Positions 8,097 through 52,375 of a DNA stretch of 64,000 bases are shown here, in pieces. The stretch lies in assembly GCA_964476595.1 (NCBI GenBank), contig CAYZCL010000133.1, positions 179 through 64,178 of the forward strand. The letters are read 5' to 3'. The notes under the pieces were generated by a model that worked only from the letters and a program-made list of their open reading frames with translations, did not search any database and had not been told where the DNA came from. Each line of letters starts with the position of its first letter. Positions within the stretch are counted from its first letter, which is position 1. The position numbers and the translations under genes were made by a program. This DNA is from an uncultured Desulfobacteraceae bacterium. GTDB lineage: Bacteria; Desulfobacterota; Desulfobacteria; Desulfobacterales; JALSRD01.

Positions 8097-8105
8097 GCAA
8101 ACCTC

Positions 8106-8909: not shown

Positions 8910-8932
8910 GGCGCTGTTCCCCCCTTGAAATG

Positions 8933-8962: not shown

Positions 8963-8984
8963 CTCTGCGCCCTTGCGGCAATCT

Positions 8985-9070: not shown

Positions 9071-9120
9071 GGTCCTATCGCAAAATACGGCAAGCGGCCG
9101 ACGCTGTCAACCGCCGCGCT

Positions 9121-9537
9121 TCATTCACCGGCCGGCAGCTGGCCGGCGTCCCGCAGCGCCGCCACGGCGCGGTCGTTGTCCGAAAAGCGGAACACCATCA
9201 CGGCGGTGCCGGGCGTCTGGCTGGCGGCGGTGTACGTGTAGTCGATCTGGACATCGGCGGCCTTCAGGGCGTCGAGCATGCGGCCCAGGCTGCCGGGCTT
9301 GTCGTCGGTCTCGACCACCACCACGTCGTTGACCACGGCGGTGATGCTGCGGTCCTGCAGAACCGCCACGGCCCGCTCGGGCCGGGACACGATCATGCGC
9401 AGCTTGCAGTGGCCGTCGCCGTTGTCCACCAGGCAGTGGGCGCGGATGTCGATGCCCTGCGCGCCCAGGTGGGAAATGACGTCACTGACCTGCCGGGCGG
9501 CGCTTCCGGTCAACACGGTCAATTGCTTGGCGTTCAT
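9121..9537 (-). CDS. ACT domain-containing protein (tandem ACT)
   Basis: 138 aa with two beta-alpha-beta-beta-alpha-beta-like halves (..ISHLGAQGIDIRA.. / ..DKPGSLGRMLDALKAADVQI..). Confidence 0.7.
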   Translation of the reverse strand: MNAKQLTVLTGSAARQVSDVISHLGAQGIDIRAHCLVDNGDGHCKLRMIVSRPERAVAVLQDRSITAVVNDVVVVETDDKPGSLGRMLDALKAADVQIDYTYTAASQTPGTAVMVFRFSDNDRAVAALRDAGQLPAGE

Positions 9538-9595
9538 GGAATCCGTCTTCCTCCCTCTCGCTTCTCAATCTGTCGCAATCGTTCCAAACAGGGAC

Positions 9596-26562: not shown

Positions 26563-27192
26563 TCACGGGGCCCTGTCGCCGATCATGAAAAGGCCGTAGG
26601 TGGCCAGCCAATTGGACAGAAAGCGTACCCGGCGGCCGCGGCGCTCGCGGGCGGGTGTGTTGACGGCCGTCTCGCGGATGATGTGCCCGCCGGTCTGGTG
26701 CACGAAGCGCCGGAAATCCTTGAGGGTGATCACACGGATGTTGGGCGTGTCGTGCCACTCGTAGGGCAGCTGGGGCGTCCGGGGGGCGTAACCGCCGAAC
26801 ATCAGCTGCAGGCGCACCTTCCAGTGGCTGAAGTTGGGAAAGCTGACGATGCCGTAGCGGCCGACCCGCAACAGTTCCCGGATCAGCCGTGCGGGCTGGT
26901 AAACCTGCTGCAGGGTCTGGCTCAGTACGACGTAGTCGAAAGTGGCGTCGGGGTAGTCCCCGATCTCCTCGTTGATATCGCCCTGCACCACGGACAGCCC
27001 CAGCTCGATGCAGTGCGCGGCCCGCGACTCGCGTTTCTCGATGCCGAAGCCTTCCACCTGTTTATGGTGCTTGAGATAGTAGAGCAGGTCGCCGCGGCCG
27101 CAGCCCAGGTCCAGCACTCGGGAGCGGGGCGTGATCCAGGAGGCGATGATGCCCAGGTCGAAACGCAGCTTTGATTCAGTGGATATCGTCAT
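26563..27192 (-). CDS. metW: methionine biosynthesis protein MetW
   Basis: 209 aa with VLDLGCGRGDLL and the downstream pattern typical of MetW. It overlaps the metX 3' end. Confidence 0.85.
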   Translation of the reverse strand: MTISTESKLRFDLGIIASWITPRSRVLDLGCGRGDLLYYLKHHKQVEGFGIEKRESRAAHCIELGLSVVQGDINEEIGDYPDATFDYVVLSQTLQQVYQPARLIRELLRVGRYGIVSFPNFSHWKVRLQLMFGGYAPRTPQLPYEWHDTPNIRVITLKDFRRFVHQTGGHIIRETAVNTPARERRGRRVRFLSNWLATYGLFMIGDRAP

Positions 27193-28345
27193 GGCAGCTT
27201 TTCAGAAACCCCTCCAGCAGGTGGGCCAGCCGTTCGTTGGGCAGCAGGAAGGCGTCGTGTCCCCACCGGGCCTCGATCTCGCAGAAACTCACGTCGCGGC
27301 CCGCCTTCTTCATGGCCTTGACCATCTCCCGGGACTGGTAGGTGGGATAGAGCCAGTCGGAGGTGAAGGAGACCACCAGGTAACGGGCGCGGGCGCGGGA
27401 GAAGGCCTGGGACAGGGACCCGCCGCCGTGCTGCAGGCCCAGGTCGAAGTAGTCGGCCGCCTTGGTGATGTAGAGAAAGGCGTTGGCGTCGAAGCGCTCG
27501 ACGAACTTGCGCCCCTGGTGGCGCAGGTAACTCTCCACCTGGAAATCGGCGTCGAAGTTGAAGGAGAAATCGCGCCGGTTCTGCAACCGCCGGCCGAACT
27601 TGCGGCGCATGGCCTCGTCGGAGAGGTAGGTGATGTGGCCGATCATGCGCGCCACGGCCAGGCCCAGGTCCGGCCGGCTCTCCGGTTCGTAACGCCCGCC
27701 GTTCCACTTTGGGTCGGCCATGATGGCCTGACGGCTGACCTCGTTGAAGGCAATGGCCAGCGCCGAGTGGCGGCAAGTGCTGGCCAGCGGTACGGCCGCG
27801 AAGACCCGCTCCGGGTAACGCACACTCCACTCCAGCACCTGCATACCGCCCAGCGATCCGCCGATGACCGCCAGCAGCCGATCGATGCCCAGGTGGTCCA
27901 CCAGGGCCCGCTGGGCGGCGACCATGTCCCCCACGGTGATTACCGGGAAATCCAGGGCGTAGGGCCTCCCGGTCCGCGGGTTGAACGACCCCGGTCCGGT
28001 GGAGCCCAGGCAGCTTCCGATGATGTTGGAGCAGATGACGAAGTAACGCCCGGTGTCGATGCCCTTGCCGGGGCCGATCATGATGTCCCACCACCCCGGC
28101 CGGGGGTCCCGGCGGTGGTAGTAGCCGGCCGCGTGACTGTCACCGGACAGGGCGTGGCAGATCAGCACGGCATTGTCGCGGGCCGCGTTGAGCCGGCCGT
28201 AGGTTTCGTAGGCCAGGGTCACCGGCCCGAGGCGTTCGCCGCTTTCCAGCACCATCTCGTCGGGCGGGTGGGCGAAGGTGAAAAATTTCTTCTCCACCAG
28301 CCCCACCGATACGCCCTGTGCGTCGTGTTCGATGTACTCGCTCAT
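27176..28345 (-). CDS. metX: homoserine O-acetyltransferase
   Basis: 389 aa with ..NAVLICHALSGDSHAAG.. and GGSLGGMQ (nucleophile elbow). Confidence 0.9.
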   Translation of the reverse strand: MSEYIEHDAQGVSVGLVEKKFFTFAHPPDEMVLESGERLGPVTLAYETYGRLNAARDNAVLICHALSGDSHAAGYYHRRDPRPGWWDIMIGPGKGIDTGRYFVICSNIIGSCLGSTGPGSFNPRTGRPYALDFPVITVGDMVAAQRALVDHLGIDRLLAVIGGSLGGMQVLEWSVRYPERVFAAVPLASTCRHSALAIAFNEVSRQAIMADPKWNGGRYEPESRPDLGLAVARMIGHITYLSDEAMRRKFGRRLQNRRDFSFNFDADFQVESYLRHQGRKFVERFDANAFLYITKAADYFDLGLQHGGGSLSQAFSRARARYLVVSFTSDWLYPTYQSREMVKAMKKAGRDVSFCEIEARWGHDAFLLPNERLAHLLEGFLKSCHDDIH

Positions 28346-28348
28346 GGT

Positions 28349-29632
<1,284 letters not shown>

Positions 29633-29794
29633 GGGAAAAAGTCTCCTTGTCCCTTGGGTAGTCTGTTTGCGCCCGCCGCCCGCCCGGGTCGCCGGAAGGC
29701 CCGGGACCGCCGCACGGCGGCGGGCCTCACCGCGCCACGGCGGCGGCCCGCTGGAGCGCACCGCCGGACGGGCGTGCCGGGCGGGGGACTGCCT

Positions 29795-30466
29795 CTAGGC
29801 GCCGGCCTTGAGCAGGGAAAGCCCGCGCGTCAGTTCCATCAGCACGCCCATGCCCTGTTTGACGGCCGGATCGCCCATGGCCCCCAGCAGGCCGAAAGCG
29901 CCCACGGGTCGGGCCCGCGACACGTCCACGCCGGCCGGTATTTCGGCGGCGCGCTCCAGCAGTTCCAGGGCCTCGGGGGTCGTCAGTTTCCGGACGATGC
30001 CCAGCAGGCGCACCAGGCCGTCGCCGATCTGCTGGATCTCGGCCGTCGAGTAGGTGGCAGCGATCTTCCTGAGCACGTCCACCATGACGCCCATCATGCG
30101 GAAAACGCCCTGCTGCTCCAGTTCGTCCAGGGCCATGATCAGCTGGGGCACCGACGACTTGAGCAGCGGCTCGGCGGTGAGCGCGAAGTCGATGAAGTTC
30201 TTGAGCTGATCCAGGGTGAAGTTGAGGTTGTTGATGTTGCGCAGCACCTTTTTCATCAGGTAGCTCAGGTCTTCGAGCTGAAAATCGGCCTCCACGTCCG
30301 CCAGCCCCACGATGAGGGCGTGCACGGCCTCGTTGACCCGCGGCGCCAGCTCCTCGCGCAGTTCCGAGACCGAGCGCGCGGATTCGGACAACGGCGTGAT
30401 CTTTTCCTCCAGGCGCGCGAGCCTTTCCAGGATCAAATCCTCCCGGCTGAGTTTTTCCTGTGTCAT
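29795..30466 (-). CDS. DUF1641-like protein
   Basis: 223 aa, helical. Its position directly downstream of an SQR-like flavoprotein and its C-terminal ..GAFGLLGAMGDPAVKQGMGVLMELTRGL.. fit DUF1641. Confidence 0.6.
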   Translation of the reverse strand: MTQEKLSREDLILERLARLEEKITPLSESARSVSELREELAPRVNEAVHALIVGLADVEADFQLEDLSYLMKKVLRNINNLNFTLDQLKNFIDFALTAEPLLKSSVPQLIMALDELEQQGVFRMMGVMVDVLRKIAATYSTAEIQQIGDGLVRLLGIVRKLTTPEALELLERAAEIPAGVDVSRARPVGAFGLLGAMGDPAVKQGMGVLMELTRGLSLLKAGA

Positions 30467-30481
30467 GATCCCACCTCCTTC

Positions 30482-31714
30482 CTAGGCCGTCTTGCGAATC
30501 TTGCCGGCGATGTTCATCTGGGGTTCCAGGGGCAGGTCGAGGCCCTTCATCATCAGGTTCCAGTAGACCCAGCGGAACATCATCTTCCCCCAGTGGTTGC
30601 TCAGGGACTCCTGCAGCAGGGAGAAGGGCCCCATGCCGGGAAAGGGAAACTTGCCGGGCAGCGGCTCCACCTCGTAGTTGAAGTCCAGCAGGATGGCCTT
30701 CTCGAAACCCGAGGCCAGAAAGCAGGTGGCGTGGCCGTCGAAAGTGGGCCTGGGCGCGTGGCCGTCGATTTCCCGAATCAGGTTCTCCACCACCGTATAG
30801 GCCATGTAGTGGGCCACCGAGCCCGCCTTGGAGGTCGGCACATTGGTGGTATCGCCGATGACGAAGATGCGCTCGTCGTTTTCGGCCTTGAGGGTGTGGT
30901 TGTCGGTGGGCACGAAGCCAACCGGATCGCTGACGCCCGAGTCGATCAGGACCTTGTCACCCATGTTGGGCGGGATGGACACCAGCAGGTCGTAGCCCAC
31001 CTTCTCGCCCTTGTGGGACTCGATGGTCTTCTCCCCGGCGTTGACCTGGGCCAGGTCGAAGTGCGGGGTCACCTTGATGTTCTTCTGCTCGGCCACGGCG
31101 GCCAGCGTCTTGGCGGCCACCGGTTTGGTGAACACGTTGTCCAGCGGTGTCACGAACTCGATCTCCACCTTGTCGCGCACGCCGTTGACGGTGAAGAACC
31201 AGTCGGCCATGAACACGAACTCCAGCGGGGCGATGGGGCACTTGTAAGGAATCTCGGCGATGTTGAGAACGATCTTTCCCGAACTGAAGTACTTCAACTG
31301 TTTATACAGCGCCAGGGAACCGTCCAGGGTGTAAAAATCGAATACTTCCTTACGCCAGCCGTCCATCATGCCGTCGATCTCCTCGGGGTGGATGTCGCAA
31401 CCCGTGGCGATCACCAGCCAGTCGTAGTCGTACTTTCCCTGCGAGGTCTCCACGCGGCGCTCCTTGCTGTCGATCCTGACGACGGTGTCGTGGACGAACT
31501 CCACTCCGCGCGGGATGAATTCCTTCTTGGGCTTGAGGACGTCGTCCCTGCCGTACACGCCGAAGGGAATGAAAAGATAGCCGGCCTGGTAGTGGTGCTG
31601 CTCCTCACGGTCGATGATCGTGATCTGCCACTCGCTGTCGGCGAGTTCCTTGCGCAGCATGTTGGCGACGATGGTGCCGCCGGCGCCCGATCCCAGAATC
31701 AAGATTCTTCTCAT
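30482..31714 (-). CDS. NAD(P)/FAD-dependent oxidoreductase, sulfide:quinone oxidoreductase-like
   Basis: Start is MRRILILGSGAGGTIVAN (GxGxxG), 410 aa, with ..IFVIGDTTNVPTSKAGSVAH... Confidence 0.85.
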   Translation of the reverse strand: MRRILILGSGAGGTIVANMLRKELADSEWQITIIDREEQHHYQAGYLFIPFGVYGRDDVLKPKKEFIPRGVEFVHDTVVRIDSKERRVETSQGKYDYDWLVIATGCDIHPEEIDGMMDGWRKEVFDFYTLDGSLALYKQLKYFSSGKIVLNIAEIPYKCPIAPLEFVFMADWFFTVNGVRDKVEIEFVTPLDNVFTKPVAAKTLAAVAEQKNIKVTPHFDLAQVNAGEKTIESHKGEKVGYDLLVSIPPNMGDKVLIDSGVSDPVGFVPTDNHTLKAENDERIFVIGDTTNVPTSKAGSVAHYMAYTVVENLIREIDGHAPRPTFDGHATCFLASGFEKAILLDFNYEVEPLPGKFPFPGMGPFSLLQESLSNHWGKMMFRWVYWNLMMKGLDLPLEPQMNIAGKIRKTA

Positions 31715-31870
31715 GGCATCTACCTCCCCTTTACTGTGGTTTTTGTCAGTGTGAGCCCGACCCGTGACAGCCTTCACGGATCGGGCGGGTGAACGTGTGC
31801 CTGTGACAGGCGGCAAAACGGCGGAAGCGTTGAACGGCCGTTCTCGAGCTCCAGGGGGTGACCGGAAAAG

Positions 31871-32902
31871 CTACATTCCCTTGCCAAAGGGACAACGGGG
31901 GTAGGTACACTGCGGACATTCCATGCACAGGCCGCCGTGGCCCATGAAGGCCAGTTCCTTCCGCCCCACGTGGCGGCCGGCTAGGATGCGGGGCAGCACC
32001 AGGTCCAGTACTGTCACATGGTGGTACAGCCCACAGGCCGGCACGCCCAGCGCCGGGACGTCGCCGATGTAGGCCACCAGGAACATGGCCCCGGGAAGCA
32101 CGGCGGCGCCGTAGTGCATCTCGTCGGCCCCGGCTTCGCGCACGGCCCGGCGCGTGACGTCGTCGGGGTCCACACTCATGCCGCCGGAAAGCAAGAGCAG
32201 GTCACAGCCGTTTTCGAGGTGCCGGCCGATGGCCCGGCGGATGGCGTCGGCATCGTCGGGGGCCAGGATCACGCCGCCCACCTCGGACCCCAGGTCCCGC
32301 ACCTTGGTGCGCAGCACCGGTTCGAAGCGGTCCTCGATCAGGCCGTGGTAGACCTCGTTGCCGGTGATGACCAGCCCCACGCGCGCCTTTCGCAGCCGGT
32401 GCACCGCGAAAACGCCGCCGGACCCGGCCGCGATGGCCGCCGCCCGCTCCACCGGCGCCCGTTTCATGACCAGGGGCACGGCCCGCGTGGCGGCCACGCG
32501 GTCGCCCTTTTTGACCAGCGTGTTGTCGTGCAGCGAGGCGCACATGACCTCGTCGATCATGTTGAAGGCCGCCAGCGAGGCGGCGTTGACGCTCAGCAGC
32601 CCGTCGCGGCCCGCCATCAGGCTGATCTTGCCCTCGCGCGGATCGTCGTCCCACACGATGCCCTCGCCGGCCAGCGCCGCCGCCAGCATGGAAGCTGCCT
32701 GGTTTTCGTGGATCTCGTCTTCCTCCAGGTCGATGAGGTACAGGTGGTTCTTGCCCATCTTCTGCAGGCGGCAGATATCCTCGTCGCACACCGTGTGCCC
32801 TTTGCGGAAAGCCGGCCCCTTGAATTCGCCCGGACGGATCTCGGTGAGATCGTGGGTGAGCTTGCGGCCCACGGCATCTCTCAGGTCGATTTTCTTCAGC
32901 AC
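31871..32902 (-). CDS. molybdopterin-binding (MoCF_biosynth domain) protein with C-terminal Cys cluster
   Basis: 343 aa, GTG start. It has ..VGLVITGNEV..LLLLSGGMSVDPDD.. (MogA/MoaB-type fold) and ends in CMECPQCTYPRCPFGKG. Confidence 0.75.
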   Translation of the reverse strand: MLKKIDLRDAVGRKLTHDLTEIRPGEFKGPAFRKGHTVCDEDICRLQKMGKNHLYLIDLEEDEIHENQAASMLAAALAGEGIVWDDDPREGKISLMAGRDGLLSVNAASLAAFNMIDEVMCASLHDNTLVKKGDRVAATRAVPLVMKRAPVERAAAIAAGSGGVFAVHRLRKARVGLVITGNEVYHGLIEDRFEPVLRTKVRDLGSEVGGVILAPDDADAIRRAIGRHLENGCDLLLLSGGMSVDPDDVTRRAVREAGADEMHYGAAVLPGAMFLVAYIGDVPALGVPACGLYHHVTVLDLVLPRILAGRHVGRKELAFMGHGGLCMECPQCTYPRCPFGKGM

Positions 32903-32929
32903 AACCGATCCCTCTCTGCTTGAAATTGT

Positions 32930-33571
32930 TCAGGCAACCCGCCGGCCGGCGTCAGGCGCCCAGTCCATGCCCGGCCAGCTGACTTCGCGGGCATCGCTGA
33001 AGTAGGCGCCGCCGGCGCAGGGCGTGCACAGCACCTCGCCGTTGCGGCGGAGCTCCCGGCGGTCTCGGATTACCTGGCCGCAGCGGCTGCAGACCGCCTT
33101 GAAGCGGGTGGGTCCGGGACGGTCCCAGGCGTCGAGCCGGACCCGCACGCGCTGCACCCGAAAGAGCACGCTGTCGGGCATGCGCCGGTAGGCCTCCATC
33201 TGGCGGGCGACCGCATCCTCCTGCTCCGGAGCGTAAACCTCGGTCAGGTCGCGGGCCTCCTCGGTGGACAGCACGCGGTAGGCGGCGCAGCTCTCCAGAT
33301 TCAGAAAGGTGGCCGCCATGATACCGTAGTCGACAAACTTGAGGCTGCGGCGCCCCAGCTTGACACCGGTCACGAAGGCTACCGCGTCGGCCGTGCAGCG
33401 GTCCATTTCCACGTAGACGATGAGTTTCTTGATCTGGTCGCGGCGCGTGGGTTCTTCCAAGCCGATCAGGCGGCACCCCAGCATGGCCATGCGCACACCC
33501 ACCACCTGTCCCGGACACAGGTGCCCATGGGCGTCCGCCGATCCGTTCAGCAGGGTTTCGAAATCTTGCAT
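32930..33571 (-). CDS. FmdE-family protein with C-terminal zinc ribbon
   Basis: 213 aa with ..AHGHLCPGQVVGVRMA.., ..DRCTADAV.. and CSRCGQ..(14)..CTPC. Confidence 0.8.
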   Translation of the reverse strand: MQDFETLLNGSADAHGHLCPGQVVGVRMAMLGCRLIGLEEPTRRDQIKKLIVYVEMDRCTADAVAFVTGVKLGRRSLKFVDYGIMAATFLNLESCAAYRVLSTEEARDLTEVYAPEQEDAVARQMEAYRRMPDSVLFRVQRVRVRLDAWDRPGPTRFKAVCSRCGQVIRDRRELRRNGEVLCTPCAGGAYFSDAREVSWPGMDWAPDAGRRVA

Positions 33572-33580
33572 TTGGCTGCC

Positions 33581-36920: not shown

Positions 36921-38063
36921 TCAGCTGGGGCCGCATTCGGAATCTGCCGGCGGCAGATCGGTGGGTGCTGCGGCCAGGCCCGCCGGGGGCCTGCGCCGCT
37001 TTTGCAAACATGCCGCCAGCCTGCCCAGCGGTTTGACCGAGATGAGCAGCACCGCGACGGCACCGGCCCACTGCACCCAGGGCGGCAGCATTTCGGCGGC
37101 CCGGCCCGCCGCGGCCTGCGCCGATATCCCGCAGTGCGTGTAGATCCGGTCCAGCAGCAACCCGAAAACCACGCTGCAGACGGCGATGGACGCCAGGTAG
37201 ATGGCCGTGGCACGCCTGCCCAGGGTGCCGAAAAGCACGGTCAGCGACGCCATGTTGGTGGCCGGGCCGGCCAGCAGGAACACCAGGGCCGCACCCGGGC
37301 TGACGCCCTTGAGGATCAGGGCCGCCGCGATGGGCGTCGAGGAACTGGCGCAGATGTAAAAGGGAATACCGACGGCCAACATCAGCAGCATGGCCTGCAG
37401 GCCGGATCCGAGGTGGCGGCCGAGAAAATCCGGTGGCACCAGCACGGTGATGCCCCCCGCCAACAGCAGTCCCACGAAAAACCAGGCCGCGATATCGGCC
37501 CACAGGTCACCGAAGGCATAGACCAGGCCGGACCGGATCTTGGCGGCGAAACTGTGGTGGCGCCGGTGTTCCTCGGGAGGGCAGTCGATACCGTCACAGC
37601 ACCCGTCCACCGGGCAGCTGCGATCGGGTTCCACCACCCGGCCTTCGGGTTTGAAGGAGGCGAGGTTCTCGCTGATGCCGGCCACCGAGGCGGTGAGGAA
37701 GGCCGCCAGCGGCCGCGCCACGGTCATGATGGGGTCCAGCAGCGCCCAAGTGATCGAAATGGAGTCCACGCCCGACTCGGGGGTGGAGATCAGGAAGGCC
37801 GTGGTGGCGCCGCGGGTGGCGCCCTGTTTGCGCAGCGACACGGCTGCGGGCAGCGTGCCGCAGGATCACAGGGGGATGGGAATGCCCAGCACGGCGGCCT
37901 TGAACACCGACGCGAAACGGCCCCGTCCCAGGTGGCGGGCCACCGACTGGGGGTTCAGGAAAACCCGCAGCAGGCCGCTGACCAGCAGGCCGAACAGAAT
38001 ATAGACGGATGCCTCCAGCAGCAGCTGCCAGGAGGCGGTGAGAACATCGATAACGGTATTCAT
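36921..38063 (-). CDS. ArsP/DUF318 (SO_0444-like) permease with in-frame UGA (candidate selenocysteine) in the CSC motif
   Basis: ORFs 37866..38216 and 36921..37841 are in the same frame, separated only by the TGA at 37866-37868. The read-through gives ..AAVLGIPIPL-U-SCGTLPAAVSLRKQGATRGATTAFLISTPESGVDS.., and the family consensus is PLPLCSCG. There is a Cys/His-rich loop (CPVDGCCDGIDCPPEEHRRHH). Start is MNTVIDVL at 38063. Confidence 0.65.
37831..37848 (-). ncRNA. candidate bacterial SECIS hairpin
   Basis: The mRNA segment CGCAGC-CGUGUC-GCUGCG is a 6-bp stem with a 6-nt loop containing GU, spanning +18 to +35 after the UGA. A second hairpin, CUGCGG-N8-CCGCAG, begins at +4. Confidence 0.35.
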
Positions 38064-38169
38064 GCAAACTCCATCCGCAGGTTGTTTCCGGCGGCCGTGC
38101 GGACCGGCAGCGGGGTCAGCACGGGGGCCCCGGTTGACAGGGTCCGCCGGGAACGCGGCACGTGCCGTC

Positions 38170-38544
38170 TCATTCCCGGAGGTGTGCCAGGCTGACATCC
38201 AGCAGGGTCTCGACATGGTGATCGTCGAGCGTGTAGTAGACGATCTGTCCGTCGCGACGGCTCCTGACCAGCGCCAGGTCCTTGAGCCGCCGCAGCTGGT
38301 GGGATACGGCCGACTCGCTCAGGCCGGTGAAGGCGGCCAGGTCGCAGACGCACATCTCCGTTTCCCGCAGGGCGATCATCATCTTCAGCCGACTGGGGTC
38401 CCCCAGGGCCTTGAAGATGCGCGACAAGCCTTCCAGCGCCCGCGCGGGCACCTGCGAACGCTGCGCCTGCTCCACCTTGTCCAGATGAACCACCCGCACC
38501 CGGCAGCCTTCCCCGTCGACGAAATCCAACTCGGCAGCTGACAT
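38170..38544 (-). CDS. ArsR/SmtB-family regulator
   Basis: 124 aa from MSAAELD, with ..LGDPSRLKMMIALRETEMCVCDLAAFTGLSESAVSHQLRRL... Confidence 0.85.
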   Translation of the reverse strand: MSAAELDFVDGEGCRVRVVHLDKVEQAQRSQVPARALEGLSRIFKALGDPSRLKMMIALRETEMCVCDLAAFTGLSESAVSHQLRRLKDLALVRSRRDGQIVYYTLDDHHVETLLDVSLAHLRE

Positions 38545-43425: not shown

Positions 43426-43777
43426 GGTCCATCTTCCCCTTCGGAAACGGGACTGCGCGTCCGGTGTTTAGCCGCCGGACCCCGCAGTGGTCCAGCCCCG
43501 CCCCTTGCTCCCGCCTCCGCACCTTGCTCCCGGCCCCGCGCAAACACCCCCGCCGCCCCCTGGTGGCGGTATGACTGAAAAAGCAAAAAACATACCAGAA
43601 GCCATCTCACAAAAACCGAAGTAATATTTGAATGCATCCAAGTAGGACCATACCCTGGAACGATAAACCCGGATTTCACATCGAGATTTGCGCTTGACCA
43701 ATAAAAAAAGCACCCATTTATAATGATCTTGGCAAGTTAATCGTAGATCACCTACGAGCAAGGAGATCATCAAAAGG

Positions 43778-44210
43778 GTGCGAAAGCAAAATAGCAAATC
43801 GGGCCGTCCCCGTAAAGTCTTTCGGCAAGGATGTCACTGCCCATGCCGGCATGGCGCTGGTAGCCCATGCGATAGAGGCATTTGAGCTGCGCAGCCTGAG
43901 GGCGATGTCGACTGGGATGAAGTGACGCACGACGCCACTTTCAGCCGGAGGCTCAAACGCTTCGACTGGCATCACAAGCTTTACCTGCGACAGGTACCAG
44001 GCGAGCCGTACTGGCGGCTTGAGGTTAACGGCCGATCGCCTATAACCTGCTCAACTGCATTCGCCGGATCGCACTGCCCAGGACCTACCGGAGCGCCCGG
44101 ATCAAACGGCTTTCATTTCTGTTTTTCCAGATCGGCGCCAACGTGGTTCGGCGTTCACGCGGGCTGTGGGGTAAAACTGACAAACGGCCTCCAGCGTGCT
44201 GTTGACTGAA
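43778..44210 (+). pseudogene. degenerate DDE transposase fragments (IS1380/IS4-like)
   Basis: The frames are broken. Peptides SFGKDVTAHAGMALVAHAIEAFELRSL and NLLNCIRRIALPRTYRSARIKRLSFLFFQIGANVVRRSRGLW resemble the N- and C-termini of IS1380-type transposases, with the middle deleted. Confidence 0.4.
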
Positions 44211-44350
44211 ATGCTTATCGAAGCCTGGTGAAAATGGTTTCAACTGCGTCGATTTTCGAGGCCAATGCTAAATCCGGGTTCATGAGGTATACCGACAACA
44301 GCAACGGATGTTCGACCACTGCGAGAGACGGATTGATGATCGGATCGTGA

Positions 44351-44824
44351 GTGTATCCCAGTCTCATGTCGGGCCAATCAAACGGGGAAAAAGCCGGCGC
44401 GGTCACCGAATTTGGCGCAAAAATACCGGTTAGCCTGGTAGACGGGTTTACCTTTGTTGATCGAATTAACTGGAATAACTATAAAGAGTATAATGACTTA
44501 AAAGGCAAGATCAAGGCATATCGAGACCGTTTTAGGTATTATCCGGAATCGGTGCATGCCGATAAGATTTACCGAAACAGGAAGAGTCGTCAATTTTGTA
44601 AAAGAAATGGTATCCGTTTTTCAGGTCCGGCATTGGGGAGGGCACCGAAGGAAGTCGACCCGGAACGTAAACGACGAGCAGGCCAGGACGAATCGGATCG
44701 TATTTTAATCGAAGGTAAATTCGGCCAAGGCAAGCGGTGGTTCAGTTTATTAAAGATCATGTGCAAATCTGCCAGGACATCAGAGGCTGCCATGGGTGCT
44801 GATGAGGCTGTTGGTATGCGATAG
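44351..44824 (+). pseudogene. C-terminal fragment of an IS5-family transposase
   Basis: ..EFGAKIPVSLVDGFTFVDRINW..YPESVHADKIYRNRKSRQFCKRNGIRFSGPALGR..IEGKFGQGKRWFSL.. matches the IS5/DDE_Tnp_1 C-terminus. The N-terminal catalytic part is missing. Confidence 0.65.
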
Positions 44825-45047
44825 AAATGTTTCTTTCCAAACTCAAAACCGGCCAGTTGCTAATTTTAACTACTTTTGGAGTTTTTCAGGAAACCCTAAC
44901 TGACACCAAGCAACCGGGGGCAACCCATCGATGTCATCGCAGTCTGCATCGGGCGTATACGTCTCCCACAAACAGCTTTATTCAGGAAGCCGCCACCCGG
45001 ATGGGTTACTTAGCCGGATACCAACCATCCATTTAGCCAGAGCCAAT

Positions 45048-45986
45048 TCAGCTTATTAATCCATGCAGGTAATCAACCATTTTTTTTCTGTCATTTAGTT
45101 CAGCAACCGTATTTTCTTTAATCCATCTGAGCCCGCCCTTGAAATTCTGGATCACCACCTGATTTTCTGTGGCAAACCCCAAAAGACTATGTTCTGTCTC
45201 CCAAAGATGTGAATGAATGGATTTTCCCTGGAAAAATAATTTCTCATTTCCCCCTGTTGCAGGGTCTGGGGTCTTGATCGTGAAGTTGAACCTGGGGCAG
45301 CTATTGGTCAGATAAACTGAGAAATGATCATAATCATGAATGAAGTTGATTAACGACGCGATATGTTTCTCTTTCCAGCGCTTGTCTTGAACATTGGCCG
45401 AGCTATGAGTGTATGTCTCCAAGCATTTACGGCAGATGTAATGCTCAACCGGATATTGCGTCAATATATTAATAAAATTGTTTTTTCTGGCCCGCCCGAC
45501 GGCCTCGATAAGTTTAAAAAAGATGGGGTGAGGATCGACCTTGTCTTTGTTAAAATATGTGCGATAGCCTTCAGGCAATACGTTGGCCGTGGGTTCGTCA
45601 TTGACAATGACGATCCGGCCGGGAATGGATTCTCCGATTAAAATAATCAGCTCATACGTGAACCAGGCTTGCAGCGGCAACATCGCAGAGGTGATCTTGC
45701 GGTTCCCAACCGATTCGATGAACAGCGGTATGTCGTCTCTATTTAACTTGGCCCGGTCAAAGATCGTCAACATATTGTCTATCTCGTCCAGGTCCAGATT
45801 CAACGCAACGGCTAAAGCAATTACTTTTCTCCGATCCACGTTTTTGATCTGACCGTTTTCAAGATGCTGAATATAGGTATTGGACAGTCCGGAAATGGCC
45901 GCCACCTGGTTCCGCGGTATCTCCTTATCTTTTAATATTTCTCTGATGTAAGTGGCTGCTTTGCGATCTCTTTTGTCTATATTCAT
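45048..45986 (-). CDS. XRE-family HTH regulator with large C-terminal domain
   Basis: 312 aa with an N-terminal ..RNQVAAISGLSNTYIQHLENGQIKNVDRRKVIALAVAL... The ~230-aa C-terminal domain is not recognised. Confidence 0.7.
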   Translation of the reverse strand: MNIDKRDRKAATYIREILKDKEIPRNQVAAISGLSNTYIQHLENGQIKNVDRRKVIALAVALNLDLDEIDNMLTIFDRAKLNRDDIPLFIESVGNRKITSAMLPLQAWFTYELIILIGESIPGRIVIVNDEPTANVLPEGYRTYFNKDKVDPHPIFFKLIEAVGRARKNNFINILTQYPVEHYICRKCLETYTHSSANVQDKRWKEKHIASLINFIHDYDHFSVYLTNSCPRFNFTIKTPDPATGGNEKLFFQGKSIHSHLWETEHSLLGFATENQVVIQNFKGGLRWIKENTVAELNDRKKMVDYLHGLIS

Positions 45987-47845
45987 TTTTGGTTATACTT
46001 GCTGATGTCTTTTAAAAACCGTTTGAGTTCTGCATCAAATAACCGATGACGCCGTAAAAACGGAGCATGACCGCCGTTTTCGATTTTATGCACCTTATTT
46101 TCCCACAGATTGGAATACGAAATGCCGGCAATATACGTCTGATTGATAAAAGGATCGTCGCTGCCATTGATGATAGCAACGGGTGTCATCCCGGATTTCA
46201 AAGCGCGAAGTTGCCGCGGCCAGTCGACCGTCAGCGTTTTCGTGAATACGAAAGCCCGCGCCCGGCCATCCGTCCTTTTGACGGCGTTGTGTAAAAACTT
46301 CGTTTCCGGACGGATCGGACCGACCGTGGCGACAGCGTACTGATGCGCTTCACGCGGTGTAAAAAAAAGACGGTTTGTCAGTTCCATATGGACGCTGGCA
46401 TGGTACCCCGCATCAAGATCATCGGGCAAGCGCCCGATGGGCGAAGTTCCGCAGATTACCAGGCCAGACAGAGGGAAACCGCGAGCATTCAGCTCCAGGG
46501 CAACATATCCACCCAGCGACCATCCGAGTATAACGGGGCGCTCAATCCCCTTTATTTTCAAAATTTCTTCCGCAATATCCGCATATACCGCAATATCGTA
46601 AGTGACATCCGGTTGCCTGGCGTTTTCGGAGACACCGTGACCGGGGAGATCAAAGGCCAGCAGGCGATGGGATTTTGCGAGCGACTGGAATTGATGAAAA
46701 AAGACTTCCTTACACGAGGAATTGCCATGTATCAGTACCACGCATGGTTTATCACCACCTGTGTCTGAGACAGCGATACGCCCGTGGGAAGTGGAAATCA
46801 TCCTTTCAATAGCACCCAAAAGCTGATTCCGAAAGGCCCTATGCCGATACCGATGCCAGGCAGCCACGAAGCCGGACCATCGCGCCGCCATGAATTTCCT
46901 GATTTCCTGAATCGCCGCCCAGAGCCCTCCGGGATAAAATATCAGTACAACCACGATGGCACCTGATATGATAATATTTCTCCAGGCACCAAGCTCTGCG
47001 AACGCTTCAGCAAAAAAAGTGAGCAATAGCGCCGATACCAGGGATCCCCATAAAGTCGCGATTCCCCCCAGCAAAAGGATGCTCAATATTAACGTCAACG
47101 TACCCAGGCCAAAGGTATCCGGAGAGGCAACACGGATATACGAACCGAAAAACGCACCGGCGATTCCAGTGAACAAAGCGCTGCCCATCAGCGTGATCAC
47201 GCGTTGACGTGCCTGTGAAACCCCTCGGGCAATGGCATAGTATTTGTGATCTCTCAAGGCGATGATGCCCCGTCCGATACGCGACTTGATCAACCGGTGC
47301 AAATAGATCGTGGAAAGGATGAACAAGACCAATGCCGTATAGTAATAACCAATCTTGCCATTTTTAATAAAACTGTAGGAACCTATTTTCAGCGCCGGTA
47401 GCGTGACCATCCCCATGGTCCCGCCGGTAATATCGGACTGGCTGATCACGATTTGTAACAACAGCTGCGAAAAGGCAATCGTAACCAGAATGACGTAAAT
47501 ACCGCTCAGCCGTAAAATCGGCAGCGCCAGAACAGCGGCAAGCGCGATTGCCACAATGCCGCCGGCGGGAATAGCCAGCCAGGGCGACAGGCCAAGAGTC
47601 TTGGCCAGGATGCCGTAGGTATAGATTCCCACGGCAAAAAACGAAACATGCGCAAAATTGAAAATACCACCGTAGCCAAGACTCAAATCCCAATTACTGG
47701 CAACGATGGCATAAACAAAATACAATATAAAAATGTGCTGCGTATAACTTCCCGAAAATATCCAGGGCGCAATGATAAAAAAGGCCAGCACCATCATAGC
47801 CGGCCGAAAACCGCCACTTCTGATAAAGGGTTGATCGTATTTCAC
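45983..47845 (-). CDS. fusion protein: LivM-type ABC permease (N) plus alpha/beta-hydrolase (C)
   Basis: 620 aa. Residues ~1-320 form a branched-chain-type permease (..LSLGYGGIFNFAHVSFFAVG..). Residues ~345-620 carry ..VVLIHGNSS.., GWSLGG (GxSxG) and ..GGHAPF... Its GTG start overlaps the livH-like stop. Confidence 0.8.
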   Translation of the reverse strand: MKYDQPFIRSGGFRPAMMVLAFFIIAPWIFSGSYTQHIFILYFVYAIVASNWDLSLGYGGIFNFAHVSFFAVGIYTYGILAKTLGLSPWLAIPAGGIVAIALAAVLALPILRLSGIYVILVTIAFSQLLLQIVISQSDITGGTMGMVTLPALKIGSYSFIKNGKIGYYYTALVLFILSTIYLHRLIKSRIGRGIIALRDHKYYAIARGVSQARQRVITLMGSALFTGIAGAFFGSYIRVASPDTFGLGTLTLILSILLLGGIATLWGSLVSALLLTFFAEAFAELGAWRNIIISGAIVVVLIFYPGGLWAAIQEIRKFMAARWSGFVAAWHRYRHRAFRNQLLGAIERMISTSHGRIAVSDTGGDKPCVVLIHGNSSCKEVFFHQFQSLAKSHRLLAFDLPGHGVSENARQPDVTYDIAVYADIAEEILKIKGIERPVILGWSLGGYVALELNARGFPLSGLVICGTSPIGRLPDDLDAGYHASVHMELTNRLFFTPREAHQYAVATVGPIRPETKFLHNAVKRTDGRARAFVFTKTLTVDWPRQLRALKSGMTPVAIINGSDDPFINQTYIAGISYSNLWENKVHKIENGGHAPFLRRHRLFDAELKRFLKDISKYNQK

Positions 47846-48732
47846 GATACAATCCTCTCAAATTTACCAAACAACCCTTCAGGCTTGATCATCAGGACCG
47901 CGATCATAACGATAAATAAAACCGTCGGCGCCCAATATAAACCAACAAAATAGATACTAAATGCCTCAATAATGCCGATGACATAGGCGGCCTTGACCGG
48001 GCTGCTCAACCGGGCAACACCCCCGAAAATAACGACAACCAGGGCTTTCATCAGGGGGTCATTGCCCATGGTCGGGGTAATAAACCGGATTGATCCCAGA
48101 AAGACACCCGCCAGCCCGGCGAGCCCGGCTGAGATACCAAAAGCGAGCAGATATAGCCGTTCTACATTCAGCCCCATCAATTCGCCGGCTTCACGGTTCT
48201 GGGCCACGGCGCGCATGGCCAATCCTATTTTGGTTTTGTGTAAAAGGAGCCACAAAAGAACAATCAGGACCGGAACAAAAAGAATAATCAATGTCTCCTG
48301 GGCGGAAATGGTTACGCCAAACAGGGAGACGTTGCCTTCGATGATCCGCGGCAACTGCTTGGACCGCCCGCCCCACAGGAGAATGGCTATGTTTTCCAGC
48401 AGAGAGGCACCGGCCAGGGTGGTAATAACGGCCAGCAGCACGAGATTGTCTTTTTTCTCAAACGGCCGTATTAAAAAAGTTTGAAAAAAAAGACCGATGG
48501 CGAAAACACCCCCGACTCCCGCAACCACCGCAATGGATAATCCGAGGCCCCACGCACTGGCGCTGGCCACTTGCCAGGCAATATAAGCACCCGCCGCAAT
48601 AAAAACGCCATGCGAAAAATTAAAAATGCCCAGGGTGGTCCAGACAACCGCCAGACCGACCGCCATCAGAGCATAAAGGGATCCTAAAACCACGCCACTG
48701 GTTAACGTATAAAGAAACGCCTGGAATGTCAT
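47842..48732 (-). CDS. LivH-type ABC permease
   Basis: 296 aa from the ATG at 48732 (ATGA overlap), with ..GIFNFSHGVF.. and ..VVIFGGVARL... Confidence 0.85.
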   Translation of the reverse strand: MTFQAFLYTLTSGVVLGSLYALMAVGLAVVWTTLGIFNFSHGVFIAAGAYIAWQVASASAWGLGLSIAVVAGVGGVFAIGLFFQTFLIRPFEKKDNLVLLAVITTLAGASLLENIAILLWGGRSKQLPRIIEGNVSLFGVTISAQETLIILFVPVLIVLLWLLLHKTKIGLAMRAVAQNREAGELMGLNVERLYLLAFGISAGLAGLAGVFLGSIRFITPTMGNDPLMKALVVVIFGGVARLSSPVKAAYVIGIIEAFSIYFVGLYWAPTVLFIVMIAVLMIKPEGLFGKFERIVS

Positions 48733-49517
48733 TGGCACACATTACCAAAGTACATATTCATAATATCCTGGTGGTCAGGCATGTTTTCCCGGGTTATGGG
48801 TGAAGAGATGCCGCCGTGATCAAACATATAGATCGTATCAACCAGATTGAGAAGGAGTTCAATATCCTGTTCCACCAATATGATGGGAACACCGAAATTC
48901 TTAATCGTCTCAATGGCCTGTCCCAAATGTAACTTGACCTTGGGCGCCAGCCCTAAAGTGGGTTCGTCAAGAATTAATAATTTAGGCTGCCCCATAAGCC
49001 CTACGCCGATGGCAACCATTTGTCTCTCGCCGCCGGACAAGGACTTTATTTTTTGATGACGGCGTTCAGCCAGAATCGGGAAAAGTGTTTCCACAAAGGC
49101 TCGCGTTTGCCTGGTTTGGGATTTTTTGCCGGAGTCGACGCTGCCGGCAAGATCAAGGGTTTCGTCAATGGTCAGTTCCGGAAAAAGGAGATTCCCCTGG
49201 GGAACCTGAATCAAACCCGATCGAGCCACTTTTTGCGGATTCATGCGCCGTCGCCGCAGCACGCTATAGTTGAAATTGCTGCTTGACCGACGCTGATATT
49301 CTCCGGGGCGGTTCAACTGTTTCCCTAAAAAAACAATCCGGCCCTCCCAGGGATCAATAAGACCGGAAATCGTCTTTAGGAGTGTTGTCTTACCATGGCC
49401 GTTGGGGCCAAATAAGCCAATGCTGGTTCCGCTTTCCATCACAAAAGATACGTCATGAAAAATTCGGACCGGTTCATATCCACCGCTAAGTCCTGATATT
49501 TCAAGAAGTGGTTGCAT
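48729..49517 (-). CDS. ABC ATP-binding protein (LivF-like)
   Basis: Walker A GPNGHGKTT, LSGGERQM and LILDEP. The ATG at 49517 follows GGAGG. Confidence 0.85.
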   Translation of the reverse strand: MQPLLEISGLSGGYEPVRIFHDVSFVMESGTSIGLFGPNGHGKTTLLKTISGLIDPWEGRIVFLGKQLNRPGEYQRRSSSNFNYSVLRRRRMNPQKVARSGLIQVPQGNLLFPELTIDETLDLAGSVDSGKKSQTRQTRAFVETLFPILAERRHQKIKSLSGGERQMVAIGVGLMGQPKLLILDEPTLGLAPKVKLHLGQAIETIKNFGVPIILVEQDIELLLNLVDTIYMFDHGGISSPITRENMPDHQDIMNMYFGNVCQ

Positions 49518-50268
49518 GCCCACCTCCCCGATCGCCTAAATACGCTTCGACCACTTTAGGGTCTCTGGTCACCTGGTCCGGTTTACCGATGCAAAGCAAT
49601 TTTCCATAATTGAGAACCAGCATCCGCTGGGAAATATCGGTGAGCAGTGCCAGGACGTGCTCGATCAGCAATATCGAAACCCCCGCGAGGTTGATCCGGA
49701 TAATGATATCTTTCAATTGTTGAACCTCAGGCCGGGTTAAACTCGAGGCCGGTTCATCAAGCAAAAGCAAGCGTGGTGATAGCGCAAAAGCACTGGCCAG
49801 CATGAGTTGTTTACGATTGTAAATGGGCAACGCACCTGCCAGTGCGTTATGCATGCTTTTGGGAAATCCGACAAAATCAAGCGCTTCTTCGGCACGTGCC
49901 TCGTTTTCCCGTGCCTGGCCGGCTGCGCTCGCGTGTTCGATAGCAACCAGAACATTGTCGAAGGCAGATAAGCCGGAAAAGGACGACTCCCTTTGGAATG
50001 TCCGCGCCAAACCGATTTGACAGATTCGATGCGGTGCCAATCGCGTGATATCACGTCCCTGGAAAATGACCTTGCCCTCATCTGCCCGGAAAGGAATCGA
50101 TGTAATAATGTTGAACAAGGTGCTTTTGCCACTGCCATTGGGTCCGGCGATACCTAGGATTTCATTTTCACCCACCTCGAAACTGACGTTATCTACCGCT
50201 GTCAGTGCGCCAAATCGTTTTGTTGCGCCCCGGACGGCAAAGAAAGCGGGTTTTTCCTGTATTGTCAT
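49501..50268 (-). CDS. ABC ATP-binding protein (LivG-like)
   Basis: GPNGSGKST and LLLDEP. The C-terminal extension is typical of LivG. Confidence 0.85.
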   Translation of the reverse strand: MTIQEKPAFFAVRGATKRFGALTAVDNVSFEVGENEILGIAGPNGSGKSTLFNIITSIPFRADEGKVIFQGRDITRLAPHRICQIGLARTFQRESSFSGLSAFDNVLVAIEHASAAGQARENEARAEEALDFVGFPKSMHNALAGALPIYNRKQLMLASAFALSPRLLLLDEPASSLTRPEVQQLKDIIIRINLAGVSILLIEHVLALLTDISQRMLVLNYGKLLCIGKPDQVTRDPKVVEAYLGDRGGGHATTS

Positions 50269-50384
50269 GGCGTTATCGACAAAATCATGAATCGACTTTC
50301 AAGCAATGAAGCACCCCATCGACCTATTGGGATCCAAAAGAGGAAGCGGCGACCATGAACCGTGGCCGCCACTTCCCGTTTCCC

Positions 50385-51647
50385 CTATTTCGACATCCAG
50401 GGCGCCGGTTTGAAGGAGCCAACTGCGTATTTGGACGGGCTGATCAATATACCTTTGCCATCCCAGATCTGATAGAAAGTTACGGGGATATGGTCGACAT
50501 CCTGGATGGCCAGGTGGGTCGCCGGATCGAAGGCGAGAACACCGGCGGCGGTATCCCGCTTCATTTTACCGATCGCTTGGGCAATGGCTTTATGCTTGGT
50601 AGGATCGCCCACCTGACGAAGCGCGTCGAAATAGAACTGCATCATATCGTAAAGGCCGATACCGTAAGGACCGGGCTCCGCCTTATACCGATTGCGATAT
50701 TCCTTCAACCTCTCCTGGCCCAGTGGCCATTTCGGTGTATCCAGTGGACCGCCGATCGCGTTATAAAGGACGCCGTTGGCATTTTTCCCGGTCAGTTTGA
50801 GAAATTCCGGAACCAGGGGCGCGTATTGCAAAAACACCAGGCTATCGGTAGGATCCTCGAGAAATTGATTCAGGAACAGGGCTGAATTGCCGGGGAGATA
50901 GTCTGTGTTTACCACCAGATCCGGGGGATTCTGGCGGACTTTGGCCAGAATGGCTCGCCAGTCGCTGACCTCGCCGAACGGCACCAGTTCATCCACGGTC
51001 ACTTTCCAGCCACCCTTTTTAAAAACAGTTTTCATGCCTTCGGAGATGGTCTTGGAATAGGGGTTGTCAGAAGAGATAATGGCCACCGTCTTATTTTTAA
51101 GTTTGATTTTTCCGGCCTTGGCCAATTTTTCAACAAGGGGCAGCAGAGCGGTCTCGTATCCCTTAAACGACGCCGTAAATGACCAGCAGCACCAGTAATC
51201 TTCAGGCGCCTTGCCGATAATACCCGCCGTCGCGCCGGCTGGACCGGCAATCATGAAAGGCATGCCAGCCTCTTTCATCAGGTCAATCTCAAAGTTCGAC
51301 AGGCTGGCATATCCGGTAATAATGAAATGAATATCGGCATCGCCCAGGAGCCGTTCGGCCGCACTGGTGACGTTTGCCGCCGACATGTCCTTGACATCGG
51401 CGGTTTCAATTTCAAATGTATATCCAGCGATCCCTCCAGCCTTGTTGGCTTCATCAACAGCCCACTTGACGGCGCGGACGTAATCCTCACCATCGGCAGA
51501 CGCCGGTCCGGTCAAGGGTGCCAGAATGCCTATCTTGATTACTTTGGCTTCTACTGCTTGATACTGTCCACCCAACGCTATCATTGCCATCACACCGAAC
51601 AAGATAAACAAGACGCTTAAATTCAAACTCCGTTTCGACCGCATCAT
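50385..51647 (-). CDS. ABC substrate-binding protein, type-1 periplasmic binding fold (LivK-like)
   Basis: 420 aa with a signal peptide, then ..IKIGILAPLTGPASADGED... Confidence 0.85.
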   Translation of the reverse strand: MMRSKRSLNLSVLFILFGVMAMIALGGQYQAVEAKVIKIGILAPLTGPASADGEDYVRAVKWAVDEANKAGGIAGYTFEIETADVKDMSAANVTSAAERLLGDADIHFIITGYASLSNFEIDLMKEAGMPFMIAGPAGATAGIIGKAPEDYWCCWSFTASFKGYETALLPLVEKLAKAGKIKLKNKTVAIISSDNPYSKTISEGMKTVFKKGGWKVTVDELVPFGEVSDWRAILAKVRQNPPDLVVNTDYLPGNSALFLNQFLEDPTDSLVFLQYAPLVPEFLKLTGKNANGVLYNAIGGPLDTPKWPLGQERLKEYRNRYKAEPGPYGIGLYDMMQFYFDALRQVGDPTKHKAIAQAIGKMKRDTAAGVLAFDPATHLAIQDVDHIPVTFYQIWDGKGILISPSKYAVGSFKPAPWMSK

Positions 51648-51934
51648 AATCCTCCTTTTGTTTCAATCCCGGGCTGAAAACTTTTCAACTCACAAGTAAA
51701 TGGATCCGGTTGATTTACGTGCATAATGATATTTTAAATGCTTTGCAAGTATTTTTTTAAATGCCATTAAAATTTCATCAATAGCACTTAAAAATAAACA
51801 GCCCATTATCGGTCCTGGCCTTTACAAATACCAAGGATGAAAGCCAACTGAACCAGTGGTTGTTTTTTTAAGAAAGAATGTGACGCCTTGGTGAAGAAAG
51901 CGCCACCAAAGGCTCACACAACAATAACTTAACA

Positions 51935-52375
51935 TTTCAAGCGTATTGCATATGAACGTGGGCAAATCGACATTCGAGAGGCGTTCATAGACGGCAGCTT
52001 CGCACCGGCAAAAAAAGGGGTCTTGCTGTCGGCAGGACAAAACGCGGCAAGGGCACCAGGATCATGGCAATCGCAGACGCTTCCGGTCTTCCTGTCGCCG
52101 CTTACGTTGAAAGCGCTGCGCCCCACGAAGTAAAACGGGTCGGGCAAACGATAGAAAGCTGTTTTACGCGCTATGCTGCGGATAAGCTTATTGGCGACAA
52201 GACCTGCGACAGCGATAAACTCGATCAGCAGCTTCAAAAGGACCGTGGCGTTGAAATGATTGCGCCACATCGAAGGAATAGAACAAGAGCACGCATCCAG
52301 GATGGACAAAAACTCAGGCGATACAGGCGCCGATGGAAACTCGAAAGACTGTTTGCAAGGCTGCAGAACTTCAGG
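51935..52375 (+). pseudogene. truncated, frameshifted IS5-family (IS427-like) transposase fragment
   Basis: IDIREAFIDGSFAPAKKG changes frame at an A7G run to GLAVGRTKRGKGTRIMAIADASGLPVAAYVESA..RRYRRRWKLERLFARLQNFRR. Both ends are missing. Confidence 0.65.

Follow-up and report, generated by a model that had tools for sequence, protein, structure and literature searches.

According to Haft and Gwadz (2022), the SO_0444 family is one of two transporter families in the selenoprotein reference data of the Prokaryotic Genome Annotation Pipeline (PGAP), and it includes members in which the Cys-Ser-Cys (CSC) motif reads USC, with selenocysteine (Sec, U) in place of the first cysteine; WP_014809615.1 of Desulfomonile tiedjei was named as an example. 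A 2026 selenoproteome review carries the entry 'SO_0444 family Cu/Zn efflux transporter, NF033936, UxC, GenBank annotated'. In Shewanella oneidensis, cells under stress from ZnSO4 or CuCl2 depend on SO_0444, and the fitness defect could be complemented. The present analysis concerns a gene of this family at 36921-38063 (minus strand) in a 64,000-nucleotide stretch of DNA, referred to here as the window, from an uncultured Desulfobacteraceae bacterium (GenBank assembly GCA_964476595.1, contig CAYZCL010000133.1, positions 179 to 64,178 of the forward strand). On the comparative evidence below, the locus very probably encodes one 380-residue SO_0444-family inner-membrane permease in which an in-frame UGA (37868-37866) is decoded as Sec. 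The gene adds a member, at present mis-called, to the known SO_0444 selenoprotein family, from an uncultured Desulfobacteraceae lineage, and the finding is a confirmation rather than a discovery, the phenomenon being present both in the literature and in the NCBI annotation rules.

An earlier note, made from the letters of the window alone, had described two open reading frames (ORFs) in one frame with a single TGA between them and had proposed that they form one Sec-containing permease gene. Re-reading of the minus strand gave the same coordinates: from ATG 38063-38061 to TGA 36923-36921 there is one frame of 380 codons, interrupted only by TGA 37868-37866. The codons around the internal stop are GGC ATT CCC ATC CCC CTG TGA (37868-37866) TCC TGC GGC. 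Read across the stop, the translation is AAVLGIPIPL-(stop)-SCGTLPAAVSLRKQGATRGATTAFLISTPESGVD, in agreement with the joined reading GIPIPL-U proposed at first, and the predicted Sec-spanning peptide would be AAVLGIPIPL-U-SCGTLPAAVSLR. The start used by gene callers for a 306-amino-acid (aa) fragment is a GTG at 37841-37839, inside the loop of the hairpin described below, and this call is wrong. Features of the locus are collected in Table 1.

Table 1. Features of the predicted selenoprotein permease locus, in window coordinates. Class I denotes the group of Sec-type genes that share the hairpin of the window gene; SECIS, selenocysteine insertion sequence.
Feature	Position	Strand	Basis
Complete SO_0444-family permease gene, 380 aa, residue 66 predicted to be Sec, terminal TGA at 36923-36921	36921..38063	-	Single frame and family models
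Putative GGAG Shine-Dalgarno sequence, 5 nt 5′ of ATG 38063	38069..38072	-	Read from sequence
N-terminal 65 codons, usually mis-called as a 65-aa ORF of their own	37869..38063	-	Separate call in relatives; dN/dS 0.04-0.20
In-frame UGA taken as Sec (U66), first Cys of the invariant C-S-C motif	37866..37868	-	Comparative column
Predicted SECIS hairpin (hairpin B) CGCAGC [CGUGUC] GCUGCG, 6 bp, +18..+35	37831..37848	-	Energy and comparative constraint
Predicted SECIS apical loop CGUGUC, GU at loop positions 2-3	37837..37842	-	Same loop in 76 of 77 class I sequences
Central Cys/His-rich loop CPVDGCCDGIDCPPEEHRRHH, residues 150-170	37554..37616	-	Invariant residues; disordered in the AlphaFold model of a homologue
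Cys238 codon, pseudo-symmetry partner of U66 in the second repeat (GIPFYI-C-ASSSTP)	37350..37352	-	Internal repeat alignment
ArsR/SmtB-family metalloregulator, directly upstream on the same strand	38170..38544	-	Pfam HTH_5; NCBIfam NF033788, 96.5 bits

Profile searches and alignments of the product were made with U66 written as C. The curated equivalog model NF033936 of NCBIfam (SO_0444-family Cu/Zn efflux transporter) was matched with 412.7 bits against a cutoff of 300, residues 11-344 covering model positions 1-349 of 351, and Pfam ArsP_1 (PF03773; DUF318) was matched by residues 13-304 (E = 2.2e-44). SO_0444 was the top equivalog, no model named ArsP stood among the NCBIfam matches, and the score on the SaoE model (182.7 bits) fell below its cutoff of 325. 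Judged by these profiles, the predicted product is a full-length SO_0444-family permease. In an alignment of 40 full-length homologues at 61-70% identity, C66 (the UGA position), S67, C68, G69 and C238 were invariant, which bore out the family motif PLCSCG given in the earlier note; with the window protein included (41 sequences), C150, D153, C155, C156, C161, H166, H169 and H170 of the central loop were invariant as well. The first half of the protein is homologous to the second (BLASTP E = 2e-13), and GIPIPL-U66-SCGTLP aligns opposite GIPFYI-C238-ASSSTP. In an AlphaFold (AF2) model of P0005, a 70%-identical Cys homologue, both motifs were placed at helix breaks (predicted local distance difference test score, pLDDT, 68.7). 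A Foldseek search of this model against the PDB returned nothing significant (best E = 0.03, TM 0.36, to YdaH, VcINDY and CNT transporters), and a sequence search of the PDB gave no match.

Comparison with relatives supported the assignment of the UGA to a cysteine column. The motif was recognisable in 78 species-representative genomes, all of them Thermodesulfobacteriota, and the codon for the first Cys of CSC was TGA in 11 and TGT or TGC in 67; the TGA-bearing genomes are labelled with several families, and the loci with TGA in the U66 column were L001, L002, L004, L013, L019, L027, L044, L047, L059, L069, L070 and L080. Metagenomes were searched with a pattern that fixed only the GxPxPL-TGA-S-C-G codons and left the downstream sequence free, and it occurred in at least 120 stretches; among the 137 matches listed once the earlier loci and the window are counted in, about 131 were true homologues. 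The Cys/Sec pairs that the earlier note had suggested looking for are thus present in number. The nearest relative of the window gene is that of a metagenome-assembled genome (MAG), JAMOVG01 PIR-30. The nearest four database relatives (82-100% identity) are every one stored as a fragment of about 306-310 aa. In the three whose contigs were compared (82-85% identity), a 65-aa ORF of its own lies just 5′ of the large fragment, the TGA stands in the identical column, and synonymous changes occur on either side of it. Against three relatives (six pairwise comparisons, synonymous divergence dS 0.2-0.5), the ratio of nonsynonymous to synonymous divergence (dN/dS) was 0.04-0.20 over the 65 codons before the TGA and 0.18-0.24 over the 314 codons after it. 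Given the former values, the 65-codon N-terminal part is, by its pattern of substitution, evidently translated and constrained; given the latter, the region beyond the TGA is under purifying selection, and the decay that would have marked a pseudogene was not seen.

These data bear directly on the possibility that the TGA is a recent nonsense mutation of a TGC or TGT cysteine codon that has inactivated the permease. A single base separates TGA from either codon, and gene callers do break the gene into two ORFs. The same TGA is found, however, in more than 100 independent, diverged sequences; dN/dS lies far below 1 on both sides at dS of up to 0.5; the 314 codons downstream form an unbroken ORF that fits the family model along its whole length; and the downstream constraint at the nucleotide level, described below, is confined to TGA-bearing genes. 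Nor can one clonal artefact account for the pattern, since the TGA genes compared differ by dS of 0.2-0.5 and the TGA-bearing species-representative genomes carry several family labels. A pseudogene is accordingly extremely improbable, and the earlier judgement in favour of Sec at the UGA, rather than a nonsense mutation, was upheld by the Cys/Sec column, the purifying selection on either side and a hairpin specific to Sec-type genes.

Fitch parsimony on a rough neighbour-joining tree, from biased sampling, gave at least about 10 switches between Cys and Sec. One MAG, Desulforhopalus sp. 3300055726_99, carries both a Cys-type paralogue (L055) and a Sec-type paralogue (L069), on different contigs, a hint that the two forms may not be redundant.

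Two hairpins had been proposed immediately downstream of the UGA. Numbered in nucleotides after the UGA, the first is CUGCGG (+3..+8)-N8-CCGCAG (+17..+22) and the second is hairpin B of Table 1. Both can form as described, and they exclude each other because they share bases; only the second proved to be conserved. The first was rejected as a functional element: it follows largely from the Cys-Gly and Pro-Ala codons, lies too near the UGA and excludes the conserved hairpin. A hairpin starting at +3 would already be inside the ribosome when the UGA is in the A site, owing to the ribosomal footprint on the mRNA. The isolated 20-nt hairpin B has a predicted energy of -9.8 kcal/mol (z -2.7 against shuffled sequences). 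The consensus for bacterial SECIS (bSECIS) elements calls for a stem of 4-16 bp, a loop of 3-9 nt with G in the first two loop positions, a UGA-to-loop spacing of 16-37 nt and an energy of -7.5 kcal/mol or lower (PMC13188914). Hairpin B lies within all four ranges, with a 6-bp stem, six loop nucleotides of which the second and third are G and U, a spacing of 23 nt and the energy given above; the claim that it falls at the distance expected of a bacterial SECIS element was therefore sound. A 3-bp lower stem, CUG/CAG (+13..+15 with +40..+42), was considered as an extension and discarded: G is present at +15 in only 48 of 77 class I sequences, so the pair G15-C40 can form in at most 48.

The hairpin region was constrained in Sec-type genes in a way not seen in Cys-type genes. 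The 16-nt core GCAGCCGUGUCGCUGC, with A or G allowed at +21 and C or U at +31, was shared by 73 of the 103 distinct Sec-type sequences; all 66 Cys-type sequences lacked it. At the third-codon positions +21, +24, +27, +30 and +33, entropy was 1.74-1.99 bits in Cys-type genes and 0.78-1.17 bits across all Sec-type genes, a comparison that is free of selection bias. Within class I, the third positions from +21 to +33 were almost fixed and the flanking third positions had 1.2-2.0 bits. The best local hairpin had a median energy of -9.1 kcal/mol in Sec-type and -4.75 kcal/mol in Cys-type genes (Mann-Whitney p = 2e-16, the sequences being related and not independent), and it reached -6 kcal/mol or lower in 99% of the former against 26% of the latter. 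The check for a SECIS element suggested at the outset thus returned a stable hairpin, at the expected distance, specific to Sec-type genes. The comparison speaks decisively against a chance arrangement, since many independent assemblies keep the frame, the hairpin and the TGA column.

In other clades, different hairpins were found at the same place. A GGC-loop family has GUGCUGCC-GGC-GGCAGCAY at +10..+28, with compensatory changes in 2 of 8 pairs and 97.4% of cells paired, a score reached by 6 of 500 shuffles. A 4-nt-loop family at +15..+30 includes CCCGC-AGUU-GCGGG, CCUGU-GGUC-ACAGG and CCUGU-GGUU-GCAGG; here compensatory changes were seen in 3 of 6 pairs, 97% of cells were paired, and the score was reached by none of 500 shuffles. 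At least three unrelated SECIS solutions therefore appear to occur among Sec-type genes.

The hairpins also bear on a split-gene arrangement, in which a 65-aa peptide would end at the UGA, translation would restart at GTG 37841 to give 306 aa, and the two pieces would assemble into a transporter without Sec. The GTG lies only 24 nt downstream of the UGA and is the start that ORF callers choose, and a two-piece protein would show purifying selection on both parts just as observed. Against it, the stop would fall exactly on an invariant Cys that is probably a metal ligand, and the eight codons from TGA to GTG (SCGTLPAA), which hold invariant residues, would go untranslated. The GTG itself has no Shine-Dalgarno sequence and sits within a conserved hairpin loop, and the other SECIS classes keep the TGA and a hairpin but have no GTG there. 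A split gene is very improbable.

A third alternative to Sec would be SelB-independent read-through, with the UGA read as Trp or Cys by a near-cognate tRNA or under a reassigned code. UGA is the leakiest stop codon, and downstream structure can stimulate its read-through. The genetic code is not reassigned, because TGA serves as the terminal stop in 33 of the 40 confident genes of the window, this permease gene among them. Alignment with Cys and a GU-containing apical loop at bSECIS distance fit Sec rather than unassisted read-through, as does the multi-UGA selenoprotein gene tsoB on the contig of a relative, and the SO_0444 family is already curated as a selenoprotein family. Read-through of this kind has a slim chance of being correct; for practical purposes the data exclude a pseudogene, a split gene and an altered genetic code.

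The tsoB gene, a rhodanese/DsbD fusion, lies on the contig of L002 at 8112-9857 (+), 2 kb downstream of a Sec-type permease gene whose product is 83% identical to that of the window. Its TGAs at 8469-8471 and 8484-8486 fall in the rhodanese active-site loop, FY-U-AGLT-U-VRS, and with U written as C the product scored 979.5 bits on the TsoB selenoprotein model. The gene is not present in the window, and its occurrence in a close relative lends indirect support to Sec use in the lineage. Thermodesulfobacteriota are among the most selenoprotein-rich bacteria (PMC13188914).

Several points weigh against the proposed reading of the locus as a Sec-containing metal exporter. The 64-kb window holds no tRNA genes, no tRNA-Sec and no selA, selB or selD. 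The class I stem shows no double-sided covariation, only invariance and single changes compatible with wobble pairing, so that support for this hairpin, as read from the alignment, consists in nucleotide-level constraint and not in covariation. The minimum-free-energy folds of the 44- and 69-nt stretches after the UGA were no different from shuffled sequences (z -0.8 and -1.1); the whole-region fold, considered as a SECIS candidate in its own right, was rejected, as it picks a helix specific to the window (+5..+12 with +24..+31) that is missing in other sequences. A permissive Rfam search of 37760-37900 (4227 models) gave no match, a null that is uninformative because bacterial SECIS elements often bear no resemblance to one another (PMC13188914). 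Confidence in the P0005 structure model was moderate overall and low at both motifs. Sec in the SO_0444 family is predicted or GenBank-annotated in Haft and Gwadz (2022) and the 2026 review, with no experimental test cited in either, and a Zn/Cu/Cd-like substrate would be assigned by analogy with one gammaproteobacterial homologue, S. oneidensis SO_0444.

Under the preferred reading, decoding would follow the standard bacterial mechanism. With the ribosome at the UGA, hairpin B would be available at +18..+35 to recruit SelB-GTP-Sec-tRNA(Sec); Sec would be inserted, and translation would run on to the TGA at 36921. The terminal TGA, 36923-36921, is followed by no such hairpin and would act as a stop.

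The predicted architecture of the permease suggests how metal might be handled. U66 and C68 (GIPIPL-U-S-C-G) and C238 (GIPFYI-C-A) would occupy equivalent helix breaks of the two homologous halves, and together they probably form a thiolate/selenolate site through which a thiophilic metal ion passes the membrane. The Cys/His-rich loop (residues 150-170) is probably a cytoplasmic metal-binding segment, where metal would be captured and fed to the transmembrane site. A selenolate, fully ionised at physiological pH, a softer ligand and faster in exchange than a thiolate, should confer higher affinity for soft metals and higher turnover. It is unlikely, on present indications, that USC permeases are exporters with a function of their own, with Sec and Cys forms that are not interchangeable; the basis for that idea is limited to the Cys/Sec switches, the three or more SECIS solutions and the single MAG with both forms. 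If it were true, such an exporter could suit very soft or organometallic substrates (Hg(II), Cu(I), As(III), methylmercury, or selenium or tellurium species, for example) instead of being a Zn/Cu pump with an improved ligand, and the selenolate in the translocation path would contribute chemistry beyond binding.

The ArsR/SmtB-family regulator, whose gene lies upstream across a 106-nt intergenic region, probably represses the permease, and the two may share a transcript; on sensing metal it would probably derepress the permease. A metalloregulator in this position is compatible with a part for the permease in Cu/Zn efflux. Read from its sequence, it has an N-terminal Cys, a CVC motif and the pattern D-x-H-x10-H-x2-E, of which the latter two are presumably the alpha3N and alpha5 metal sites, as in CadC, SmtB and ZiaR. 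Where enough flanking sequence was available, an ArsR homologue adjoined the permease at 34 of 41 Cys-type and 20 of 24 Sec-type loci, and it was the sole neighbour conserved over both types. The window neighbours also include a thioredoxin-like protein, DUF4405, MauE/DoxX, rhodanese and TauE genes; these were rejected as conserved partners, being syntenic in the nearest relatives only.

Elsewhere in the window, a scan of in-frame TGAs for other selenoprotein genes returned gene junctions only. One of these, TGA 28351-28349, was considered as a Sec codon and found to be an ordinary junction. It lies in a run of six consecutive genes in a single reading frame (27176-33580, minus strand), each starting right after the preceding stop: a hydrolase, a Cys/Met pyridoxal-phosphate enzyme, a DUF1641 protein, a sulfide:quinone reductase (SQR), a MoCF-biosynthesis-domain protein and FmdE. 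The SQR (30485-31870, minus strand) is of type III and scored 650.7 bits on the NCBIfam 'selenoprotein subtype' model (cutoff 525), and its ORF is uninterrupted and ends in TAG; it is therefore the Cys form of an often Sec-containing family, and is followed by the DUF1641 gene (29798-30481, minus strand). An AIR-synthase-like gene was examined as a candidate SelD and set aside, as its product scores as ThiL (313.7 bits). This thiL (6404-7561), which could be mistaken for selD, forms with thiM (8109-9008) and thiE (7449-8105) a thiamine salvage and biosynthesis operon (6404-9069, minus strand) behind a thiamine pyrophosphate (TPP) riboswitch (8978-9069), the sole match in the whole window to Rfam at gathering thresholds.

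A second metal-resistance module at 14963-17309 (minus strand) encodes a Zn/Cd/Pb-type heavy-metal P-type ATPase (599 bits on TIGR01525) with an ArsR-family regulator of its own at 16938-17309. Near it, a 238-nt direct repeat (12078-12315 and 14697-14934; 94% identity) duplicates the 3′-terminal part of a gene with a 4Fe-4S ferredoxin domain. Each copy closes with LGRKCECC and then TGA, and the roughly 2.4 kb between the two include a ParE-toxin ORF (12829-13227, plus strand); the region looks like an insertion with a duplicated target. Relative to the syntenic contigs of the close relatives L001 and L002, in which a sigma-54 activator adjoins a SpoIIE/HAMP gene, the window carries an insertion of about 8.9 kb at 43450-52371. 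This segment contains a DDE transposase fragment (44351-44821, plus strand), an HTH_3 protein gene (45051-45986, minus strand) and a Liv-type branched-chain amino-acid ATP-binding cassette (ABC) transporter set (45986-51647, minus strand) in which one permease is fused to an alpha/beta hydrolase.

The gene and its close relatives are stored publicly as 65-aa and approximately 306-aa fragments, and each such pair should be joined into a single selenoprotein annotation. Among sediment Thermodesulfobacteriota the USC form is widely distributed, with several clade-specific SECIS hairpins and repeated exchange with the Cys form, which makes the SO_0444 family a convenient natural system for learning what a selenolate adds to metal transport. 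Sec in the substrate path of a membrane transporter is rare, and we know of no Sec-bearing transporter that has been tested experimentally. The earlier note, in calling Sec in a permease translocation pathway unusual and mechanistically interesting, overstated the novelty, as USC-type SO_0444 proteins had already been described and entered in the PGAP reference. Beyond Haft and Gwadz (2022) and the 2026 review, what is added is incremental: the metagenome frequency, the clade-specific SECIS classes, the near-invariance of class I, the estimate of switches and the MAG with two forms.

Among described systems, the closest is the selenoprotein form represented by WP_014809615.1, which shares with the window protein the NF033936 family, the USC-for-CSC substitution and the phylum. 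The one Desulfomonilaceae homologue retrieved (L080, which is not that exemplar) is about 55% identical to the window protein and has the hairpin CCCGC-AGUU-GCGGG (+16..+29), compared with GCAGC-CGUGUC-GCUGC (+19..+34) in the window. S. oneidensis SO_0444, the founding Cys form, matches the same family model and is the only member with functional data; it has Cys and a MerR/ZntR-type regulator, whereas the window gene has a predicted Sec and an ArsR/SmtB-type neighbour. ArsP of Campylobacter jejuni, which effluxes methylarsenite, belongs to the same Pfam family, ArsP_1, and has a cysteine motif at the equivalent place that is reportedly needed for transport. The window protein differs in having SO_0444 as its top equivalog, and none of arsM, arsH and arsC lies near its gene in the window; the Cys/His-rich loop at its centre points to metal cations, not organoarsenicals, as substrates. 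SaoE has the CSC motif too and belongs to the ArsP-like fold family, but the window protein falls below the SaoE cutoff, and SaoE itself is never a selenoprotein (Haft and Gwadz 2022). SaoP, SaoB, MerT-like and YeeE/YedE proteins, which are predicted Sec-containing transporter components of unrelated folds, provide precedents for Sec at a substrate-contact position.

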